Below, in pieces: positions 12,339 through 34,075 of a DNA stretch of 34,075 nt. The translations under genes were made by a program, and so were the position numbers. The DNA comes from a virus (taxonomy: Duplodnaviria; Caudoviricetes). The stretch lies in the IMG/VR virus record IMGVR_UViG_3300048579_000166, positions 1 through 34,075 of that record. One strand, given 5' to 3'. The notes under the pieces are model-generated. The model saw only the letters and a list, made by a program, of their open reading frames with translations. It was not told where the DNA came from and made no database searches. The stretch's first letter is position 1. Every line of letters begins with the position of its first letter.

Positions 12339-14852
12339 TCAACTTATGGCCACATTGAATAAATCAAACAATGTTGGGGTTATCGTGGTTGTTTCAGTTG
12401 CTTTCAGGTACCCAACTCCATCCCTGAAATAATCTGCATTAAGCTCAACTCCATAACCTTTTCTGCCCATTTTGACAGCTGTTACAGGGACTGTCATGAG
12501 GCCTCCAAAGGGGTCAAATACAACATCACCTGGATTAGAGTATCTGTTGATTATTCGCTCAACTATGTCAATCTGGAGAGGACACACATGGAGCTGCAAC
12601 CGCTTTTGACTTTGTTTGGTGTTCATAGTTTTCATGCGATTGATATCATCCCAAACTTCGTCTGTCCAGGAACCAGGAGCCACAACCATAAAAGTTGCAG
12701 GTAATTTCCCGTCAGTATCGAGCTTTTTAGCCAGTTCCACATGCTCTTCATAACTGTAAATGGTTTCCCTTGAGAATTTTCTATAAGCCGCCTGAAGCTT
12801 ATTGACTGGTACCGCTGCGAGTTCATCTTTTGAGATCAATCTATCTCCGGATGATCTCCAAAAACCATGTGCGTCGATCTGCCATTGGGCCCTTGTGTAA
12901 TCCTCTTTTGACTTAGTAACCGGTATGTCCGCATAAGCTTTGCTTCTGTCTGTGGGTAACTTCCTGAATAACAATATGTATTCTGGGCAACCTACGCCCA
13001 TTTTGGTCCCGTCCTTGCATTGTTCTGTCCAGCCAAGGCGGTATGTTTGGTTGTTTTCCCTGACCACATCTGTAATGACTGTTATCATGCCGAAGTACTG
13101 GAAACCATGTTTCATATAGTGATTGATGCACATTGCGTGGAATGGCTCTATAGTTGGCATTCCTGTACCAGTTGTATTGCCGAATAACACACGGTCCTTG
13201 ACATGGCAGGCTAATACTCTACCGGGGTTCAATATCCTTAACATCTGTGGTGATAGAAAATCCATTTGCTCGAAAAACATTTCTGTATCTTTGTTATGGC
13301 CAAGGTCGTTATAACTTGGCGTATACTCATAGTGGTTACTGAATGGAATCGATGTGTGAATGAGATCAACACTGTTAGATTCCATATGTTCACATTCAAG
13401 TATACAATCGTTATTTACCGCTACCCAGTTGTTACCTTCCACTTTCACACGTTCCACCCCCATACTTCTTGTCATTTTGTCTATTATCGATGTATTACTA
13501 AGTCCATGTTTTTTGATAATTGCGGTCATTTTCTCTGTAAGGTAATCATGTTGCTTCCATTTCTCCAAAAGTGCCTGTAAAATCTGCCTTTCGCTTTCGG
13601 TGTATATAATGTCTATAATTACTTTTTCTGTTTGTAAAAAACGATGTGTCCTATGGATGCTTTGGATAAAATCATTGAACTCATAGTCAATTCCCAGATA
13701 TATGGCTCTATGGCAATGTCGCTGGAAATTGCACCCGGACCCGCTAAGATCCTTTTTAGTGGCGAACCGTTTTATTCGGCCTTCTGAGAAGTCAATTACC
13801 CTTTGTTCCCTCAAGTCTAAATCTTGGCTACCATAGATATCAACTACATCAGGTATTGCCTTCTTGATGGCCAGTCTTTCAGCCTCCAGGTCGTGCCATA
13901 ATATAAAGTGGTCATCTGGATTTTGATTGACTATTTCGGCCATTTTTGCCACTCTGGAATCAATACTGTCTCGCTTTTCTTTTGCTGCATCCTGGAGTGA
14001 CAAAGCTGCATTCCTTATGAGTTTCATTTGCCCGTTACGGTCAACTCCTGCCGTCAAGTGGTCAACGGGAATTTCGTGGTACCTAACTTCGAGTTCAGGC
14101 AAATCATATCCCTCGTCAGAGTATCCCAAGTCAGATGGTTTTTGTATAAATAACGCCCAGCTACTTACCCAGAGCCAAAACTCCTCTTCTTTATGAGGAT
14201 ATAAAGTTAAGTTGTTAGCCTTGGTAGAATCCCTCTGAAAAAATCTCGTAAGTGCTTGCCCGGTATCCATGATTTTCAGGTACCCAGCATAATGTATTAA
14301 TTCTTTGTACCGGTTAGGTGATGGTGTAGCAGTAGAAACCAACTCATAAGGTACCTCTTTGAATTTGTCAAGGAACGTTTGGTAAGTCTTACTTCCAAAG
14401 CTCCTGAGGACTGAAGCTTCGTCAAGGGATGTTGCTGTAAAATAAGTTGGGTCAATATCCCCATCTCTAACCCGCTCATAGTTTGTCAGGAGAATAGTTT
14501 CTTTGGCCTTTATGGCTTCATCCATAGTCTTTATGTATTTTGGCAGCTCCATGCCCAATAAATTAACCGCATCCCTGGTAAACTCTTGTTTAACCCCAAG
14601 CGGTAAAACTATAAGAGCCTTACCGCCTATTTTTTCTGTCACTATCCTGCAAAACTCCAACTCCTGAAGGGTTTTCCCAAGCCCAAACGCCTCAAACAAT
14701 CCACGTCTACCGCCTTTTATCGCCCATTTAACAGCATCTCTTTGGTGTGGCTTAAGTATGGGGTGAATGTCACTATCAGATATCTCAAAGCCTGAATCTT
14801 TAGCTACTTCAACTTTTGAAAGCAGAAAATCCTTATACCCCATCATCATCAC
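12339..14852 (-). CDS. SF2/SNF2-like helicase fused to a beta-class N4/N6 DNA methyltransferase
   Basis: GLGKT, DEAS, TATP, QSIHRTHR helicase motifs; TSIPF catalytic motif precedes VFDPFGG SAM-binding motif. Confidence 0.88.
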   Translation of the reverse strand: MMMMGYKDFLLSKVEVAKDSGFEISDSDIHPILKPHQRDAVKWAIKGGRRGLFEAFGLGKTLQELEFCRIVTEKIGGKALIVLPLGVKQEFTRDAVNLLGMELPKYIKTMDEAIKAKETILLTNYERVRDGDIDPTYFTATSLDEASVLRSFGSKTYQTFLDKFKEVPYELVSTATPSPNRYKELIHYAGYLKIMDTGQALTRFFQRDSTKANNLTLYPHKEEEFWLWVSSWALFIQKPSDLGYSDEGYDLPELEVRYHEIPVDHLTAGVDRNGQMKLIRNAALSLQDAAKEKRDSIDSRVAKMAEIVNQNPDDHFILWHDLEAERLAIKKAIPDVVDIYGSQDLDLREQRVIDFSEGRIKRFATKKDLSGSGCNFQRHCHRAIYLGIDYEFNDFIQSIHRTHRFLQTEKVIIDIIYTESERQILQALLEKWKQHDYLTEKMTAIIKKHGLSNTSIIDKMTRSMGVERVKVEGNNWVAVNNDCILECEHMESNSVDLIHTSIPFSNHYEYTPSYNDLGHNKDTEMFFEQMDFLSPQMLRILNPGRVLACHVKDRVLFGNTTGTGMPTIEPFHAMCINHYMKHGFQYFGMITVITDVVRENNQTYRLGWTEQCKDGTKMGVGCPEYILLFRKLPTDRSKAYADIPVTKSKEDYTRAQWQIDAHGFWRSSGDRLISKDELAAVPVNKLQAAYRKFSRETIYSYEEHVELAKKLDTDGKLPATFMVVAPGSWTDEVWDDINRMKTMNTKQSQKRLQLHVCPLQIDIVERIINRYSNPGDVVFDPFGGLMTVPVTAVKMGRKGYGVELNADYFRDGVGYLKATETTTITPTLFDLFNVAIS

Positions 14853-14921: not shown

Positions 14922-16031
14922 TCACCCTTTCTCTATTCTTACAGGGGCACATATATGGAAGAATTCATTCCCCTCTACCGGTGCTATAAAAACTGGTTTA
15001 AACCCACCTAAAAATTGAAGTATAATAGATTCGTCATCGATTGATTTAATGGCATTAATAAGCATTTTAGGATTAAATCCATTTTTCACATATGACCCTT
15101 CAACTTTTTTAGCTGTTATTTCGCTGTTGCTTTCGCCGAACTCCGATGAGTAATTAACATTAATTTTGTTTCCTTCAACTGTAATAAATAACGGTGGATT
15201 TTTTGACATGTCAGTACTTGGAATAAACGGGAATACGGCTTCTAAGGCATTACGCAATTCTTTTGTTTTAATTTCTACGGAGGCAGCAAAGTCATTTCTG
15301 AAAAAAGTTGGAAAATCAAAATATTCTCCCGTTAGTGTATTAGCAGTTACTAAATAGCTATCTGTTTCAAACAGTACCTGATTGCGATTTTTGTAAATTT
15401 TGACTGTTCCTTGATTCTCGAGTATTTTTGATATATCTGTAATCACCTTTCCTAAAATCACCGCTTCAAACTCATTGACGCTTGTTTTAATCCTTCTGAT
15501 TGCTACACAATTTCCATCTGATGCAGTACCATTCATGTAGCCATTTGATATTTTTATTTGTTCTCCATTAAGCGGAGCTCTTTGAGGGTCAGCACACACC
15601 GCAAATGCAGTTTTGTTAATAAGATCTTTAAGATCTTTCTGGTTTATTTCTATAACTTCTCCCCCTTTTGCACCCGTAATGGGTAAAGCCGGATACGCAT
15701 CTGCTTCAAGCCCTTTGATTTTTACAGAGGAATTCTCACCTTCAATCAGCATCGTGAGACCCTTGAGGGTTATGTCAAGTTCCCCTTTGAGATTTCTGAC
15801 AACATCCGAAAATAATTTTGCGTTGACGACAACCTTTCCTGGCTTAAGTACTTCGCACTCACATTTTGCTTGTATACCAATTTCATAGTTGTTTCCGGTT
15901 ATCTTCAATATGCCGTCTTCGGCTTCAAGCAGTACACCTTCAAGGATCTTTTGTAGCGGTTTTGGACTGACTGCTTTTAAGGCCTTATCTAATGTATTTA
16001 TAAGCAGAGTCTTATCTATAGCTATCTTCAT
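14922..16031 (-). CDS. dnaN: DNA polymerase III beta sliding clamp (phage-encoded)
   Basis: 369 aa; ILEGVLLEA, ITGNNYEIGI, TAFAV, ASDG, GFNPKMLINAIK, C-terminal PVR. Confidence 0.9.
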   Translation of the reverse strand: MKIAIDKTLLINTLDKALKAVSPKPLQKILEGVLLEAEDGILKITGNNYEIGIQAKCECEVLKPGKVVVNAKLFSDVVRNLKGELDITLKGLTMLIEGENSSVKIKGLEADAYPALPITGAKGGEVIEINQKDLKDLINKTAFAVCADPQRAPLNGEQIKISNGYMNGTASDGNCVAIRRIKTSVNEFEAVILGKVITDISKILENQGTVKIYKNRNQVLFETDSYLVTANTLTGEYFDFPTFFRNDFAASVEIKTKELRNALEAVFPFIPSTDMSKNPPLFITVEGNKINVNYSSEFGESNSEITAKKVEGSYVKNGFNPKMLINAIKSIDDESIILQFLGGFKPVFIAPVEGNEFFHICAPVRIEKG

Positions 16032-17209
16032 CTAAATACCTCCAATCTTCTGGCAATTTCATATATAACATTTACCGTAACTGAATTTCCTGCTTGTTTG
16101 TAAAGCTGACTGTCTGAGTTGACTAACGCAGCTCTATTGAAATATTCATCAGGAAATCCTTGGAGCCTGAAACACTCTTTTGGAATTAATCTGCGTATCC
16201 TTTTTTTATTAACAATTCCAAACGAACCACAATGAGTCGTGCTTGAGTTTCCGCTAGCTGTTAATGTTCCACATAATCCATCATTTCTCTGTTTGTGGTT
16301 GTATAAGTCAAAGATTGCAGCTCCGTGTATATCTTGAGTTGTTAATGTAAACATTGGCTCATTATTATCTTTTATTCTTCTGCCATTTTGCCTTTTTTCT
16401 TCTCTGTCTGGTGTTAAAACAGCTTTTACTTCAATTATACTTGTTCTATCCTGTCGAGCTAAAATGCCTTTGTGATAATTTGCATCAATGCAGTGAGAAT
16501 TCCCTTCTTTATCAGTTTTATATGGTTCAACTATCAAGTCCATATCTGAATGATTTCCACCACTATGACCTCCGCCTGTTAAGCATGAGGCAATGCTTTT
16601 ATTTTTTTTATTGCCTTTCTTATCAATTAAACAAACATTTGATTCTACGGCTTTCTTAACAATCTCTCCGTTGCCTCTTGCGAGAGGAAATATTTTTCGG
16701 GTACCTGCTCCTCTAAGATGTCCGATAATGAACACTCTTTTCCTGTTCTGTGGGACTCCAAAATTTTTACTGTTAAGCAATTGCCATTCTGCATCATACC
16801 CCAGTTCATCCATTGCAACGAGGATTGTTCCGAAAGTCCGTCCTCCATCATGGTTAAGTAATCCTGCAACATTTTCAAGGAATAATATTTTTGGTCTGTT
16901 GTCATAGGCAAGCCTGAACACCTCAAAAACAAGAGTTCCTCGCATATCTTCGAAACCTCTCCGTTTGCCAGCAATTGAGAAAGCTTGACAAGGGAAACCT
17001 CCGCAATAGCAATCTGCTTTTGGAATATCTGAGGAAACAACTCTTCTAATGTCATTTTCATACCATTCATCCTCTCTTGGGTTATGCATTCCCCTATAAC
17101 TTTTGTCTGCAAATTTATCAATTTCACAGTGTCCTAAGCATTTATGACTAGCCATTTCCATTCCAAGACGAAAACCCCCGATGCCTGCAAAAAAATCTAT
17201 AAATGTCAT
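16028..17209 (-). CDS. C5 DNA cytosine methyltransferase
   Basis: FAGIGG, GFPCQAFS, ENV, QNRKR, RRLIPKECFRLQGF and GNSV motifs. Confidence 0.95.
   Translation of the reverse strand: MTFIDFFAGIGGFRLGMEMASHKCLGHCEIDKFADKSYRGMHNPREDEWYENDIRRVVSSDIPKADCYCGGFPCQAFSIAGKRRGFEDMRGTLVFEVFRLAYDNRPKILFLENVAGLLNHDGGRTFGTILVAMDELGYDAEWQLLNSKNFGVPQNRKRVFIIGHLRGAGTRKIFPLARGNGEIVKKAVESNVCLIDKKGNKKNKSIASCLTGGGHSGGNHSDMDLIVEPYKTDKEGNSHCIDANYHKGILARQDRTSIIEVKAVLTPDREEKRQNGRRIKDNNEPMFTLTTQDIHGAAIFDLYNHKQRNDGLCGTLTASGNSSTTHCGSFGIVNKKRIRRLIPKECFRLQGFPDEYFNRAALVNSDSQLYKQAGNSVTVNVIYEIARRLEVFR
16645..17127 (-). CDS. Overlapping alternative-frame ORF inside the C5 MTase (M.EcoHK31I beta-like); start uncertain
   Basis: 160 open codons ending CSLSDILEEQVPEKYFLSQEATERLL. 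Confidence 0.45.
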   Translation of the reverse strand: MKLINLQTKVIGECITQERMNGMKMTLEELFPQIFQKQIAIAEVSLVKLSQLLANGEVSKICEELLFLRCSGLPMTTDQKYYSLKMLQDYLTMMEDGLSEQSSLQWMNWGMMQNGNCLTVKILESHRTGKECSLSDILEEQVPEKYFLSQEATERLLRKP

Positions 17210-18501
17210 GATGCTTCACCATCCTCAACATCTGGGTCGAAGTCTGGTTCTTCCTCAACCCATGTGTCATCTTTCAAAATTAGCTTATCAACTCGGTCAA
17301 ATATACAGGGCCTCATTTCAAGAAGTTGCTGTGGCTCAAGCATATCAAACAAAGTTATAACACCGTTTCTCTTTGCGATCTGTAAGGCTTTTATTTGTTC
17401 AGCCATTCCAAGTTCCATGAATGCTCTCCACTGTTTGTTGTGGGTCCTTCTTAACATGGCCATGTGATTATTTTTGTAGAGCAGATCAGTACCACATCCC
17501 ATGCAGCCATTACGTTTTATAGTGTAGTATTTGCCGCTTTCATCAGTCCACCCCATGTTATACAGGTCTGAATACGGCACATTGAATCTGTGTATGTATG
17601 CCCAAATATCATCATCTGTCCATATTGAAATTGGGTTACAGTGCCAAAAGGAATCTCCTGACTTTTCTAAATGTGGCCTTTTTGATTCAAAAAGGTATCC
17701 TCTGCTCATGAAGTTAGTTTGCCGTGATCTGGACTCAGAAGCCATCAGCCCTTTAAATATGACATCAACATCCCATTCAGCTTGAAGCTTTTCAGAAGGT
17801 TCCTTTTTAAGCACATCACAGCATGCCTGAGATATTTTTACCTGCTTTAAAATGTCATAATAGGCAAGTAGCTTGGGGTCCTCACTCTGACTTTGTGAGA
17901 AATTAAGAAAGCAATCTATGTTTATTCTGTGAGCTTTAAGTTTAGAGAATGCTTTCCCTAACAATGGCCATCCGTATTGGTCAACACACCACCAGTACGA
18001 TTTTCTGGTGCCTTCTGGCCATATTAAGCCTTGTTCCTCAAATTCCTCATACATGCATCCTGGGCAAGCTGCTTCAAGAGTTCCAGTAGTTTTAAGTTTT
18101 CCATCGTCCTTAAGTACTTCTTGTACTTTGTCATTGTCAATAAGGTATTGTAGTACCTTTTGCTGAGCTGGGTATTTCAAGCTCTTTTTCTCAGTTCTTT
18201 CAGGCTTAGTCTCTTGAAAGTTACTCTTCCAGTCTTTCTTAAGCTGTCTGGCAAACTTAACACATTCAGGATATTCAACGCCGGTATTTCCGTAGATGAT
18301 AACAAACCTTTCAGCCCATTCAGGGAAATATGTCCTTATAAGGTACCAGAGAACCGTACTGTCTTTACCTCCTGAGAATGCTATTGCAGGCCGATGTTTG
18401 CATACTGCCAAACCTGAGGCAACCGCTTCAACTGCTTTGCTGATTTTATAATCTAGATCTTTCTTTTGCTCTATCTCTAAATCTTTGTAACCTATGTACA
18501 T
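17206..18501 (-). CDS. PAPS reductase family (CysH/DndC-like) protein
   Basis: PP-loop AFSGGKDSTVL, ACCDVLKKEP and RNGCMGC Fe-S motifs. Confidence 0.9.
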   Translation of the reverse strand: MYIGYKDLEIEQKKDLDYKISKAVEAVASGLAVCKHRPAIAFSGGKDSTVLWYLIRTYFPEWAERFVIIYGNTGVEYPECVKFARQLKKDWKSNFQETKPERTEKKSLKYPAQQKVLQYLIDNDKVQEVLKDDGKLKTTGTLEAACPGCMYEEFEEQGLIWPEGTRKSYWWCVDQYGWPLLGKAFSKLKAHRINIDCFLNFSQSQSEDPKLLAYYDILKQVKISQACCDVLKKEPSEKLQAEWDVDVIFKGLMASESRSRQTNFMSRGYLFESKRPHLEKSGDSFWHCNPISIWTDDDIWAYIHRFNVPYSDLYNMGWTDESGKYYTIKRNGCMGCGTDLLYKNNHMAMLRRTHNKQWRAFMELGMAEQIKALQIAKRNGVITLFDMLEPQQLLEMRPCIFDRVDKLILKDDTWVEEEPDFDPDVEDGEAS

Positions 18502-30306: not shown

Positions 30307-30570
30307 TTACATAGCCTCCTTCTTTTTTTCAAACGAAGGGAAAAAGTTATCAATTGAACATCTATATAGTTCAGCAAGTTTTTTCGCCAGATCCAGGGAA
30401 GGCTTTCTTTTTGTACCTTGTTTTTCAATCTGGCACAAATGAGCTTCTGTGCACCTAAACCCACTATCAACTACCTTCTTGACGACATCTTTTCGTGAAA
30501 GATTTGATGATTCTCTTAATTTCCCCAATGCATTCAACCTATCAACTCTTACCTTTTTCATATTTTGCAT
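30307..30570 (-). CDS. Cro-like XRE HTH regulator
   Basis: HLCQIEKQGTKRKPSLDLAKKLAELY; divergent from the repressor. Confidence 0.85.
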   Translation of the reverse strand: MQNMKKVRVDRLNALGKLRESSNLSRKDVVKKVVDSGFRCTEAHLCQIEKQGTKRKPSLDLAKKLAELYRCSIDNFFPSFEKKKEAM

Positions 30571-30587: not shown

Positions 30588-30736
30588 ATAATATACTATA
30601 AGTTAATTATTATCCACTTTTAAATAAACTTAAAGTTAATTATTGCATCGAAAAAAAATAACTTAGGTCTATAATGCTAAGTTATACATAAAATTTCTTG
30701 AATTATCTTGACATTAATTAACTTTAAGTTTATTAT
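30588..30736. promoter_or_regulatory. Genetic switch: divergent promoters with AACT-N3-AGTT operators
   Basis: Rightward TTGACA(30708)-17-TATTAT(30731); leftward TGGATA(30616)-17-TATTAT(30593); operators at 30594-30604, 30627-30637, 30720-30730. Confidence 0.8.
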
Positions 30737-30761: not shown

Positions 30762-31331
30762 ATGTTTTTTGCCCATCGTTTCAAGACTTTGCGAGATAAA
30801 AGCGGATATGATCAAAAAGAAATAGCAAAAATAATAAATGTTACCCCAGTTGCTGTTAATAAATACGAATTAGGGAAAGGTACTCCTAGTTTAGAAAATC
30901 TTATAAAGTTACGAAAACTCTTTAATGCATCTATCGACTACATGCTTGGTTTAGATCTTGAAGATGCTAAAGATTTAATTTCTAGTAATAGTAGTAAGCT
31001 AATTTGCGAAAGTATTAAAACTCTACGTTTGAAAAGAGGTGACACACAAAAGGAATTTGCATTTAAGGTTGATATGGATGTAAAGGAAATTGAAGAGATA
31101 GAGGGAGGTAAAATTCCTCACTTGGATCAGTTGATTAAGATAAGCTCAATGTTGGAAGTAAGCTTAGACGAGTTAATTGGAGATACAAAAATAAAAATAG
31201 TAGACAAAGAGCAAGATAGTATAATCAATTTTGCCCTCAATTTAGATAATAGGGGATATATAAAATTGGCTATGGCAATTAAAGAGCAGGGGCTTTGTCC
31301 TGATGATGTTGTGTTTGGTAAAAGATTATAG
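30762..31331 (+). CDS. CI-like repressor with two tandem XRE HTH domains and no peptidase domain
   Basis: QKEIAKIINVTPVAVNKYELGKGTPS and QKEFAFKV...IEEIEGGKIPHL; ATG 30762 is 9 nt from AGGAGG. Confidence 0.88.
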   Translation: MFFAHRFKTLRDKSGYDQKEIAKIINVTPVAVNKYELGKGTPSLENLIKLRKLFNASIDYMLGLDLEDAKDLISSNSSKLICESIKTLRLKRGDTQKEFAFKVDMDVKEIEEIEGGKIPHLDQLIKISSMLEVSLDELIGDTKIKIVDKEQDSIINFALNLDNRGYIKLAMAIKEQGLCPDDVVFGKRL

Positions 31332-31349
31332 ACACAGGGGGTTTAATAA

Positions 31350-32090
31350 ATGGAGAAATTTAATATAATTAATATAATATTATTGTCGATACCAGAAGCA
31401 ATTTTAAATATTTATATAGCGTTATTGTTTGTTATGGAAAATAGGTTTTTACCATTTAAATGTGATAAGGCTACTAGAAAAATCAACGTTTTAAAAATAA
31501 TTGCATTTACGCTATCATATTCTTTGTTTGGGGCAATTCTAGATCATTTTTCACATAATATGCAATTTAATTCACTCGCTAAAATATTATCAATGTTTAT
31601 ACTTATAAGACTCATATATAAAATCACTTGGATTAAATCGTTTACAGGAATGATAGTTAGCCTGGGATTTTTAATTGGGTTTGAGGCGTTTTATGGACCA
31701 GCCTGTGTTAATATATTTTATTTAGATATAAATGATTTTTTCAATGGGGATCAGAAAACGAGAATATTATTATCTTTGGCTGTGCGTGTTGCTCAACTTT
31801 GGGCAATAGTGAGTTTATGGAACTGGAAACTTGTTAATGACGAGTTGGGAAAATATAAATTGAAAACAAAAGCTTTATTTATAACAATTGCTTTAATATT
31901 AATTGCAATAGAATTTGAATTTAGCCAACTTTATGCATTAAACTTTAATTCCTTATCCATAAATTACAAAATAATTGGAGGAATTGTATGTGTTTGTTGC
32001 GGACTACTCAATTATTTGATATTCTATAGCTACATAGTAATAATTAGAGAAGTTGCCAAACATTTTGCTTTAGGCAAAAAAGGAGGATAA
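31350..32090 (+). CDS. Polytopic (~7 TM) membrane protein resembling an AgrC/VirS-type sensor domain without a kinase
   Basis: Seven hydrophobic segments; ends about 14 aa after the last; directly upstream of the AgrD-like gene. The functional call is inference. Confidence 0.6.
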   Translation: MEKFNIINIILLSIPEAILNIYIALLFVMENRFLPFKCDKATRKINVLKIIAFTLSYSLFGAILDHFSHNMQFNSLAKILSMFILIRLIYKITWIKSFTGMIVSLGFLIGFEAFYGPACVNIFYLDINDFFNGDQKTRILLSLAVRVAQLWAIVSLWNWKLVNDELGKYKLKTKALFITIALILIAIEFEFSQLYALNFNSLSINYKIIGGIVCVCCGLLNYLIFYSYIVIIREVAKHFALGKKGG

Positions 32091-32094
32091 GGAT

Positions 32095-32220
32095 ATGAAA
32101 TTTAAGATTTGTTCCTTTTTATCAGTTTCACTATTCATCATAGGAGCGATAGTAACATCAACAGCAAGCACATTCTGGTTTTATCAACCCAAAGCCCCAA
32201 AAGTCCTTATGAAGAAATAG
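32095..32220 (+). CDS. agrD: AgrD-like cyclic lactone autoinducer peptide precursor (41 aa)
   Basis: MKFKICSFLSVSLFIIGAIVTSTASTFWFYQPKAPKVLMKK: basic N-terminus, hydrophobic leader, S-x4 ring, YQPKxPK tail; AGGAGG RBS at 32081-32086. Confidence 0.9.
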   Translation: MKFKICSFLSVSLFIIGAIVTSTASTFWFYQPKAPKVLMKK

Positions 32221-32338
32221 TATTTAAAAGAAGGACAAAAATAAAGGACCTATCAAAGAAGTCCTAATATAATTAATATAATAATAATTTGTCGATTAAT
32301 GTCGATTATAATTCAATATGTAACTGTTGTCAATATCC

Positions 32339-32367
32339 ACGGCCTGTGATTATTAGGCCGTTTTTTT
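32339..32367 (+). terminator. Intrinsic terminator closing the repressor-7TM-agrD unit
   Basis: ACGGCCTG-N7-TAGGCCGT followed by a T run. Confidence 0.8.
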
Positions 32368-32419
32368 ATTAAGACTTACATACATACAATAAACGACATT
32401 TTACGACATAATAAAACAC

Positions 32420-32464
32420 TAGGCTATAGCTTATTAAAATATTTTATTTAAATAGGCTATAGCC
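32420..32464. promoter_or_regulatory. Duplicated palindromic operator upstream of the second XRE gene
   Basis: TAGGCTATAGC at 32420-32430 and 32453-32463 (core palindrome GCTATAGC, 33-bp period). Confidence 0.6.
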
Positions 32465-32560: not shown

Positions 32561-32902
32561 ATGGACATAGGAAAAAATATAAGGAAAAACAGAAGCAAAT
32601 TAAAACTATCAAGAAAAAAAATCAGCGAAATTACAGGTGTAAGCGAAGGATACATAGGAGAAATTGAAAGAGGAGAGAAGGTTCCATCTATAGAAACTTT
32701 GCTTAAGATTTCTAGGCCGCTAAAATTAACAGTTTCTCAATTGATAGGCGAAATTAATATTCTTGATGATTACTTAGTCGATCTTCAAAAGATAGCTGTT
32801 AAAAAACCTGAAGAAATAAAAAGACTTGTTTCTCTACTAAAATTATTATCTAATGACGAAATAAGAGCTATTTCTAATTTCGTAGAAGCTTTTAAAAAGT
32901 AA
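32561..32902 (+). CDS. XRE-family HTH regulator
   Basis: ISEITGVSEGYIGEIERGEKVPSIETL; AAGGTGA RBS. Confidence 0.9.
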   Translation: MDIGKNIRKNRSKLKLSRKKISEITGVSEGYIGEIERGEKVPSIETLLKISRPLKLTVSQLIGEINILDDYLVDLQKIAVKKPEEIKRLVSLLKLLSNDEIRAISNFVEAFKK

Positions 32903-33076: not shown

Positions 33077-33121
33077 CTCCAAAACCGTCGGCTGCAGGTT
33101 CGAGTCCTGTCTCCCCTGCCA
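33077..33121 (+). mobile_element. att core: 3' half of tRNA-Trp(CCA), not a complete tRNA
   Basis: CTCCAAA anticodon loop, T-arm GCAGG-TTCGAGT-CCTGT, acceptor 3' strand ending GCCA; 5' half absent; adjacent to integrase. Confidence 0.88.
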
Positions 33122-33170: not shown

Positions 33171-33206
33171 AAAAGTTAGAGGGAATTAAACCTTCTAGCT
33201 TTTTTT
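33171..33206. terminator. Possibly bidirectional intrinsic terminator between att core and integrase
   Basis: AAAAGTTAGAGGG-N7-CCTTCTAGCTTTT with A and T flanks. Confidence 0.65.
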
Positions 33207-34075
33207 ATTGTGCATCTGTAGAAAGGTTTCTTGATTTTCTAGCATTAAGAATATTATTAAACATGTCTGCAGCTTGTTGATCTGCTTTTTTAAATGCATG
33301 AGTATATATATTATGAGTTGTAACACTACTACTATGTCCTAACCGGGCAGCTATTGCCTTAACATTCAAACCTTGATTTATTAATAAGCTTGCACTTGTA
33401 TGCCTTAATCCATGGAACGGTAATGGAGGCATGTTATTTTTCTTAAGGAATTTATTTAACCATTTAGAAGCTGTATATGGATGCATAGGTTTTCCAAATT
33501 GTCTTGTCTTATTATCATAAGCAACAAAAACTGATGTACTTTTAAACCAAAGATTTTTTGATTCTGATTTTTCTTTTTCATAAACGGCTTGATATTCTGC
33601 AATAAGCGACATAATTTCCGGCGACAATGCAATAATCCTTTTGCTTTCTTCTGTTTTGGGGTCCTTTGTAAAAGTGCCTTGACCTGGGATATATTGCGAA
33701 GCTTGTCTTATTTCAATTGTACTCTTCTTAAAATCTATATCAGACCATTCCAAACCCATAATTTCACCTAATCGACAACCAGAAACCAAAGCTATATTAA
33801 TTATTGTACGATACTTAATAGGTGCTTTTTCAAGTAAATCCAGTAATAAAAATGTTTCTTCCTCATCATAGCATTTTGGGTCTTTCTTACGAACCTTTGG
33901 AGCATCTGCTCTCACTGCAGGATTTTCTTTTATTTGTCCTTTTTGTAGTGCATAGTTTAATATTGAGGTTATAAGCCTATGATGATGTTTTATTGTCTGC
34001 TCTGAGATACCTTTGGATTTTATTTTTTCTCCATCATTATCTTTCTTTTGTGATATAAAATAGTGTTCTTTCCTT
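33205..34075 (-). CDS. int: Tyrosine integrase, N-terminus beyond the window
   Basis: GCRLGE, PKT, HGLRH, LGH and NIYTH catalytic motifs; frame checked by hand is open to the right edge. Confidence 0.95.
   Translation of the reverse strand, partial: RKEHYFISQKKDNDGEKIKSKGISEQTIKHHHRLITSILNYALQKGQIKENPAVRADAPKVRKKDPKCYDEEETFLLLDLLEKAPIKYRTIINIALVSGCRLGEIMGLEWSDIDFKKSTIEIRQASQYIPGQGTFTKDPKTEESKRIIALSPEIMSLIAEYQAVYEKEKSESKNLWFKSTSVFVAYDNKTRQFGKPMHPYTASKWLNKFLKKNNMPPLPFHGLRHTSASLLINQGLNVKAIAARLGHSSSVTTHNIYTHAFKKADQQAADMFNNILNARKSRNLSTDAQ

Follow-up and report, generated by a model that had tools for sequence, protein, structure and literature searches.

The virus record IMGVR_UViG_3300048579_000166, whose entire 34,075 bases constitute the window analyzed here and which represents a partial temperate phage with one end in the portal region, was found to encode an agr-type signaling unit devoid of a kinase. 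This unit consists of genes for an XRE repressor, an AgrC-like membrane sensor, and an AgrD peptide precursor. Sequence comparisons indicate that such a kinase-less, XRE-linked unit is a real and conserved form of agr-type signaling. The three genes appear to be built into the cro/repressor switch of the phage, and we give about even chances to the reading that the sensor directly controls the immunity repressor and thereby tunes lysis versus lysogeny.

An initial annotation, made from the letters of the window alone, had described a promoter followed by a repressor gene, a gap, a seven-transmembrane gene, a second gap, a 41-aa open reading frame (ORF), and a terminator, and all of these elements were recovered. 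The putative operon promoter, TTGACA-17-TATTAT (30708..30736, plus strand), has 11/12 consensus matches; this match alone is weak evidence because the region holds 33 promoter-like sites, compared with 22.8 ± 4.6 in shuffled sequences. The likely immunity repressor (191 aa; 30756/30762-31331, plus strand) contains two HTH_3 domains and a C-terminal helical domain of about 50 aa, and no peptidase S24 domain was detected in it by a domain scan. It is separated by 18 bp from the sensor gene (246 aa; 31350..32090, plus strand), which is in turn separated by 4 bp from agrD (41 aa; 32095..32220, plus strand). A Shine-Dalgarno-like site precedes each gene, and a putative terminator, composed of a hairpin and a T-run, lies at 32339..32367 on the plus strand. 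Judging from this spacing, the repressor, sensor, and agrD genes are likely carried on one transcript.

Head-to-head with the repressor stands a cro-like XRE gene (87 aa; 30307..30570, minus strand), the first gene of a leftward early operon, whose HTH_3 match falls just under the cut-off. Its putative promoter, TGGATA-17-TATTAT (30588..30616, minus strand), is the mirror image of the repressor promoter, and an inverted repeat (I1, 82% complementary) lies between the two. Operator-like palindromes AACTTWAAGTT, presumed to be binding sites, span 30594..30730: the only two perfect copies of the window are located at 30627 and 30720, and a third with 2 mismatches at 30594. Two of the three fall inside the spacers of the divergent promoters. 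A divergent XRE pair with shared putative operators ahead of early genes is also what the sequence anatomy of cI/cro switches presents, and, as far as layout can tell, the head-to-head genes, mirrored promoters, and palindromes are the anatomy of an immunity switch.

The AgrD-like nature of the 41-aa ORF, proposed in the initial annotation, was borne out by the AgrD model TIGR04223 (36.3 bits, cut-off 19, E = 4e-9). The precursor also follows the rule that a cyclizable residue is found ten residues ahead of a conserved proline (supplement of PMC8251862), with Ser25 and Pro35 in these positions. The predicted product is a five-residue serine-type ring, Ser-Thr-Phe-Trp-Phe (STFWF, codons 32167-32181), with QPKAP as follower. 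All neighboring peptides of sensor homologs that were tested (8/8) pass TIGR04223. Among the 100 precursors located behind sensor genes (see below), 95 could be parsed by the ring rule, with cysteine (58) or serine (37) as the cyclizable residue, and they contain 85 distinct rings. The window peptide is nearer to chromosomal precursors than to those of the agrB-carrying prophages described below, which rank 52-96 of 99.

The 246-aa protein has seven hydrophobic segments and resembles an AgrC sensor domain, with neither a DHp hairpin nor an ATPase domain. It matched no Pfam, NCBIfam, or PHROG family, and an exhaustive search retrieved 36 proteins at E ≤ 0.001, the query counted. Its AlphaFold2 model is all-helical (pLDDT 89.3), and an atlas model reached TM 0.74 to an HATPase_c_5 kinase cluster; nothing clear was obtained among solved structures. 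Using hhalign, the sensor family could be aligned with the N-termini of GHKL kinases (probability 98.2, E = 4e-14), and its profile aligns end to end with a kinase (locus L142) that itself matches staphylococcal AgrC weakly (28.6 bits over residues 36-428, cut-off 500). In the longer family members, the tail falls on a SPOB_a (DHp-like) hairpin whose consensus has no histidine. The window sensor terminates before this hairpin and consequently has neither the DHp histidine nor the GHKL ATPase of canonical agr systems. The reading that best fits these alignments is an AgrC-like receptor that has shed its kinase portion. In a quick version of the sensor tree, the window protein had no starred placement, and the rows nearest to it include P0002, P0003, and L065/L066.

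Other gene arrangements were observed in this family. At loci L233, L235-L237, L239, L240, and L242, the kinase is split into a family membrane gene of about 160 aa and a SPOB_a/HATPase gene of about 282 aa, followed by agrB and agrD where the available DNA extends far enough; these loci are possibly an intermediate towards the kinase-less form. At L241 (261-3777), proteins of 415 and 436 aa combine this sensor domain with a C-terminal part that has no Pfam match, and agrD, a gene for a receiver-domain protein, and agrB lie downstream.

The sensor-family profile matched in 93/149 genomes of the likely host order (150 of the 180 matches listed), and a wider profile matched in 43/399 genomes drawn from the class, with several of the matches in kinase-length frames. 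Gene neighborhoods were compared for 109 sensor genes, that of the window included, which come from part of the listed matches and remained after the removal of ten duplicate loci and of proteins longer than 400 aa. An agrD-like ORF follows 100 of them, and 3 of the 9 sensor genes without one sit at the edge of the available DNA. An XRE gene flanks 75/109, in different layouts and sizes. Thus, the association of the seven-transmembrane homologs with agrD and with XRE regulators, on which the initial annotation depended, held up. Within 1 kb, agrB was found at 30/109 sensor genes; 72/100 modules have no nearby agrB; and, as far as the available DNA reaches, a search distance of 1.5 kb around the 109 sensor genes revealed no GHKL kinase. 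AgrB is nevertheless present in 129/149 genomes of the order and in 88 of the 93 sensor-positive genomes. At L123 and L132, tandem sensor-agrD pairs with differing rings were seen on one chromosome and resemble a receptor library.

The XRE proteins flanking sensor genes vary in size and orientation and share a C-terminal helical domain without a Pfam name. In the window repressor (about 31167-31310), this domain was recognized at 24.9 bits (E = 8e-6) by a model built without that protein. When the model was built from convergent XREs only, the domain was found in 21/26 upstream-type XREs (E < 0.01) and in the window repressor at E = 1e-5. It was absent from 29/37 other XREs of the same loci. 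It should be noted that the recovery of 73/74 flanking XREs is circular, as the domain model was built from the same proteins. Sensor and domain are both present in 87 genomes, the sensor only in 6, the domain only in 8, and neither in 48. Against solved structures, the best non-repeat matches of the domain are SinI chains, at a weak E of 0.016-0.019; PPR matches were disregarded as summed repeats, and the Pfam SinI family was not among the listed hits for any member of the domain alignment. A fold search with the repressor was driven by its HTH and gave a generic HTH fold match to CylR2.

The initial annotation had proposed a relay to the XRE regulators of the region. This remains tenable for the 191-aa repressor, which contains the shared domain and is likely the partner of the sensor. 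The second XRE gene of the region (113 aa; 32561..32902, plus strand) encodes no such domain; it was rejected as the sensor partner and probably stands outside the proposed circuit. A 20-bp inverted repeat, GGCTATAGC...GCTATAGCC, is located 5' of this gene at 32420-32464 and could be an operator or a terminator. Elsewhere in the order, an orphan XRE of about 225 aa with the shared domain recurs in a housekeeping neighborhood (L147, L149, L152, L155, L156, L163, and L166, as well as L167, L171, L175, L179, L181, L183, and L184) and is a candidate target in trans. Decayed modules were also observed (L148, L151, L161, and L165).

The closest relatives of the unit are prophages of three genomes (L065, L066, and L067/L068), in which cro, repressor, sensor, and agrD have the same order as in the window, as expected from the conserved prophage triad that the initial annotation had anticipated. 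The window sensor is 32-34% identical to those of L065-L068, and the repressor shares 37-40% identity along its whole length with those of L065-L067. The cro-like gene (38-47% identity to its counterparts in L065-L067) belongs to a family found in 3/149 genomes, and all copies (4/4) stand head-to-head with repressor-sensor-agrD. In L065-L068, a convergent agrB (PF04647) follows agrD, and an integrase or recombinase is encoded nearby. Searches of the partial record for AgrB-like or GHKL-like ORFs yielded none, the best E values (0.016-0.095) belonging to unrelated short ORFs and to the peptide ORF, and the slot of the relatives' agrB is occupied in the window by the unrelated 113-aa XRE gene. 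The absence of agrB and of a kinase domain reported initially was thus confirmed for the window, but the lack of agrB does not extend to the closest prophages. A second group, L080-L082, is located on mobile DNA and shares this order of genes. In L080 and L082, a DUF5317 gene comes after agrB and may encode an accessory processing membrane protein. The genome containing L067/L068 (G038) has one prophage immunity region twice, 63 kb apart: one copy occupies an att junction close to rRNA-like DNA, whereas the other is arranged as holin-endolysin-integrase-att-agrB, which suggests a tandem or excised form in the assembly. A degenerate AgrD pattern retrieved 23 stretches from viral contigs, of which 2 are known prophages, 1 (L188) is a phage module not met before, and the remainder are chance-like. 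In the phage contig L188 (1905-4463), sensor, agrD, a PemK-like domain protein, and agrB are encoded in one run, and no XRE with the shared C-terminal domain was found.

Some of these precursors have already been described from cultured bacteria. Ruminiclostridium agrBD loci without AgrA or AgrC were listed in 2021 (Molloy 2021, PMC8251862), and precursors identical to theirs are found in L067/L068, L066, and L059. Indeed, the AgrD of L067/L068 equals Cpap_1451 letter for letter over the precursor; Table S1 of that study gives CFLWG as its mature cyclic peptide and neither AgrA nor AgrC. The candidate peptides were detected by high-performance liquid chromatography with high-resolution mass spectrometry and shown to be lactams (PMC8251862). 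No receptor is named for these loci in the table, and the word phage is absent from the main text (PMC8251862).

A further element, absent from the initial annotation, lies behind agrD. A sigma-A-type promoter, TTGACA-17-TATAAT (32305..32333, minus strand, 12/12 matches), faces back into agrD and would give an antisense RNA of about 50-60 nt (32235..32298, minus strand) over the 3' untranslated region of the operon. A terminator-like hairpin with a T-run (32265-32245, minus strand) follows about 35 bases after the motif TCGACA. The promoter and TCGACA occur together behind agrD at 4/100 loci, which are the window, L065, L066, and L067 (0/96 others), and the combination arose in 0-1 of 2000 shuffles for each locus. 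The layout of promoter, TCGACA, and terminator is the same in L065-L067. No Rfam family matched the unit. We considered whether the antisense promoter was a leftover agrB promoter and rejected this, as in the relatives it is located after the agrB stop.

On the opposite strand, TCGACA resembles the 0A box, whose consensus is TGNCGAA (10.1101/2024.07.15.603595). Tandem near-0A boxes, TGTCGAT-N3-TGTCGAT (32290..32306, plus strand; 1 match, 0.05 expected), cover the start of the antisense unit, and the minus strand has a second tandem pair near 32394-32409. The spacing of the tandem boxes is what we take to be reminiscent of the Bacillus abrB promoter, and the boxes may be bound by Spo0A. Near-0A boxes also recur about 100-125 bases 5' of chromosomal sensor ORFs (for example L054, L058, L061, L063, and L064), and likewise upstream of the sensor genes in L085, L086, L092, and L099.

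Several known systems share parts of this organization. Canonical agr systems have in common with the unit AgrD (TIGR04223), an AgrC-related sensor domain, and, for the related prophages, AgrB. This comparison includes phage phiCDHM1, which carries agrB/agrC/agrD and whose AgrC has an HATPase_c domain (PMC3901668). In contrast, the window has no kinase domain, no AgrA, and no agrB, and the linked regulator is an XRE protein. Instead of the receiver and LytTR domains of AgrA, the regulators flanking the unit display HTH_3 only. Neither LytTR nor TPR proteins, which the initial annotation had also reported missing, surfaced among the window proteins in general scans, no dedicated search having been made for either. 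Kinase-less agr cassettes of the Brevibacillus phages Davies, Emery, and Abouo were mentioned in 2014 (PMC3901668). They resemble the unit in that temperate-phage membrane protein(s), agrD, and agrB, with no HATPase, are encoded near an integrase and a repressor. They differ in that the membrane proteins barely match the window family (best 5.6 bits), a 121-aa gene follows, and the cassette stands outside the repressor operon. Arbitrium (AimR-AimP-AimX) is likewise a phage-encoded peptide system at a lysis-lysogeny switch, but its peptide is linear, imported by Opp, and read in the cytoplasm by a TPR receptor, whereas the peptide encoded in the window is of the cyclic AgrD type and the sensor is membrane-bound. 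The AimR model NF038310 gave 14.8 bits (cut-off 70), from the HTH only. For phage Wbeta, AimX reportedly works as an antisense of cI (PMC11945551), and the antisense unit of the window also faces a repressor operon.

By analogy, the nearest mechanistic precedent is CylR1-CylR2 of Enterococcus, in which a DNA-binding repressor and its membrane partner relay a peptide signal with no phosphorelay, by a mechanism described as unresolved (PMC3709268). The likeness would be one of mechanism, the sequence side being limited to the generic HTH fold match with CylR2; moreover, three helices are predicted for CylR1, and a lantibiotic subunit serves as the signal (PMC3709268). In the helical hook of SinR/SinI, a two-helix domain likewise follows the XRE HTH at the C-terminus, but the proposed partner in the window is a membrane protein. 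The XRE-sensor-agrD triad was not found described in a literature search that mostly excluded subscription papers, and no output regulator was given there for phage agr genes, although these have been known since 2014.

We propose the following sequence of events. In lysogens, one promoter would likely transcribe the repressor, sensor, and agrD genes, the peptide detected for a relative being indirect evidence of this. It is plausible that AgrD is processed by host AgrB, likely to cyclo-STFWF; this is proposed because the window phage has no agrB at the usual slot. Homology and gene linkage suggest that the secreted cyclic peptide binds the sensor, and co-occurrence suggests that the cytoplasmic face of the sensor contacts the C-terminal domain of the repressor, whose activity would then be altered by this direct contact, with no phosphorylation. 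A complex prediction of the sensor with this domain (score 0.00, partner fold uncertain) was used neither way. By the arbitrium analogy only, we slightly favor a polarity in which the empty sensor keeps the repressor at the membrane and the peptide frees it, so that high lysogen density would favor lysogeny. The antisense RNA may, speculatively, trim the 3' end of the operon under the control of Spo0A.

Several observations weigh against direct control of the immunity repressor by the sensor. The module is mainly chromosomal and common in the host order. A phage-specific module was thus rejected, given its presence in 93/149 genomes in mostly chromosomal contexts, and the initial description as a phage cassette applies only insofar as prophages do carry it. 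Such genome counts are also phylogenetically non-independent. No XRE is adjacent to 34/109 sensor genes, and the neighbors are mostly housekeeping genes in 11/20 large loci, which were chosen so that the matches most similar to the window were among them. The close phage clade comprises four independent phages only, and the window phage, known from a partial record, has no agrB. In L080, the integrase gene stands between the module and a repressor/cro-like pair distinct from it, and another pair of XRE genes is present in L065. The shared C-terminal domain may be a plain oligomerization domain. It is not exclusive to the module, a notion that was rejected, since only 3 of 40 additional loci with the domain, selected for lying away from listed sensor matches, had a sensor gene within about 3 kb. 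Finally, in the table of PMC8251862, no product was detected for a serine-type precursor identical to that of prophage L066, which matters because the window ring is also serine-type, nor for a chromosomal-module precursor identical to that of L059.

Among the alternatives, the sensor and peptide could use the repressor promoter merely for expression in lysogens and act on the host's modules, such as chromosomal sensors, orphan XREs with the shared domain, or sporulation, rather than on the phage switch. That the family is common in host chromosomes (93/149 genomes), that orphan XREs with the shared domain exist in many genomes, that the window peptide is host-like, and that near-0A boxes lie behind agrD would all suit such manipulation of the host, as would the control of sporulation by a cyclic autoinducing peptide in R. 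cellulolyticum (PMC8251862). We nevertheless regard it as unlikely, given that the phage repressor itself bears the C-terminal domain of the module, that the cro family is found only beside the module, and that the rings differ from one another instead of repeating a single host signal. A decoy or pseudo-receptor, soaking up peptide or pairing with a host AgrC-like kinase while the XRE link is an inherited gene order and the domain only oligomerizes, appears improbable. Full-length kinases with the same sensor domain do exist in the order, longer members retain the DHp-like hairpin, and the XRE domain is weakly SinI-like and present in orphans; however, the window protein is devoid of the kinase-pairing hairpin, and XRE adjacency recurs in varied layouts across the sensor tree.

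The phage might instead have lost agrB and its own signal, the sensor reading peptides of the host or of other phages, or the unit might be decaying. The unrelated XRE gene in place of agrB, the decayed modules known elsewhere (L148, L151, L161, and L165), and the missing product of the L066 serine-type precursor (PMC8251862 table) point that way. This possibility is quite improbable in our estimation, as the three ORFs, their Shine-Dalgarno-like sites, and the antisense unit are intact, and modules without agrB are the majority (72/100). Genes behind cI often block superinfecting phage, and the sensor gene is directly behind the repressor, but exclusion of related phages by the membrane protein, with the peptide as modulator, is very unlikely for a protein whose homologs are mostly chromosomal, agrD-linked, and derived from kinase sensors.

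Taken at its widest, direct control of the repressor by the sensor would make the unit a second class of phage-to-phage communication beside arbitrium, in which a kinase-stripped AgrC, co-opted from a widespread kinase-less quorum-sensing family of Acetivibrionales-type clostridia that had not been described, senses a cyclic peptide at the membrane and directly holds or releases the master repressor, an AimX-like antisense RNA is gated by Spo0A, and the peptide of one such phage, cyclo-CFLWG, was isolated with its phage origin unnoted. We advance this combination tentatively and rate its chances at somewhat below even. If this is true, phages would count lysogens by means of cyclic peptides whose signal passes from membrane to repressor without phosphorylation, and this would bear on prophage induction in biomass-degrading cultures. 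More generally, many clostridial agrD loci have no annotated receptor, and for a large set of them the family offers candidates for both receptor and regulator; in these phages, it is apparently the lysogeny repressor itself that serves as the linked regulator. This can be put to a direct test: a cultured, non-pathogenic clostridium makes a chemically characterized cyclic peptide from a precursor that equals the one in a related prophage. Peptide synthesis and CRISPR editing have been used for Ruminiclostridium (PMC8251862).

Domain and PHROG scans of the window identified portal, terminase, RecT/YqaJ, replication, antirepressor, and integrase genes. The tyrosine integrase (33205..34075, minus strand; PF00589, phrog_1) is truncated by the record end. 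Between it and the module, in an attP-like layout, lies an att core (33077..33121, plus strand) corresponding to the final 45 bases, at the 3' end, of a tRNA-Trp gene. Exact copies of this core were found in 26 genome stretches, Anaerobacterium chartisolvens among them, and the order of this species was therefore chosen for the genome survey. A tRNA-Trp was called in 18/19 stretches scanned, and the prophage loci L065, L067, and L068 keep 43/45 bases. From these matches, the host is likely a cellulose-degrading clostridium. Direct searches confirmed no relatives of window proteins in viral contigs, metagenomes, or GenBank phages; a word-based protein search with a window protein returned the query alone, and the remaining direct searches gave only prophages already known from the genomes, or a near copy. 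The window also encodes a portal-MuF fusion (834-2900), an SNF2-methylase fusion (12339-14852), a phage-borne DNA polymerase III beta clamp (14922-16031), and a protein with a PAPS-reductase domain (17206-18501).

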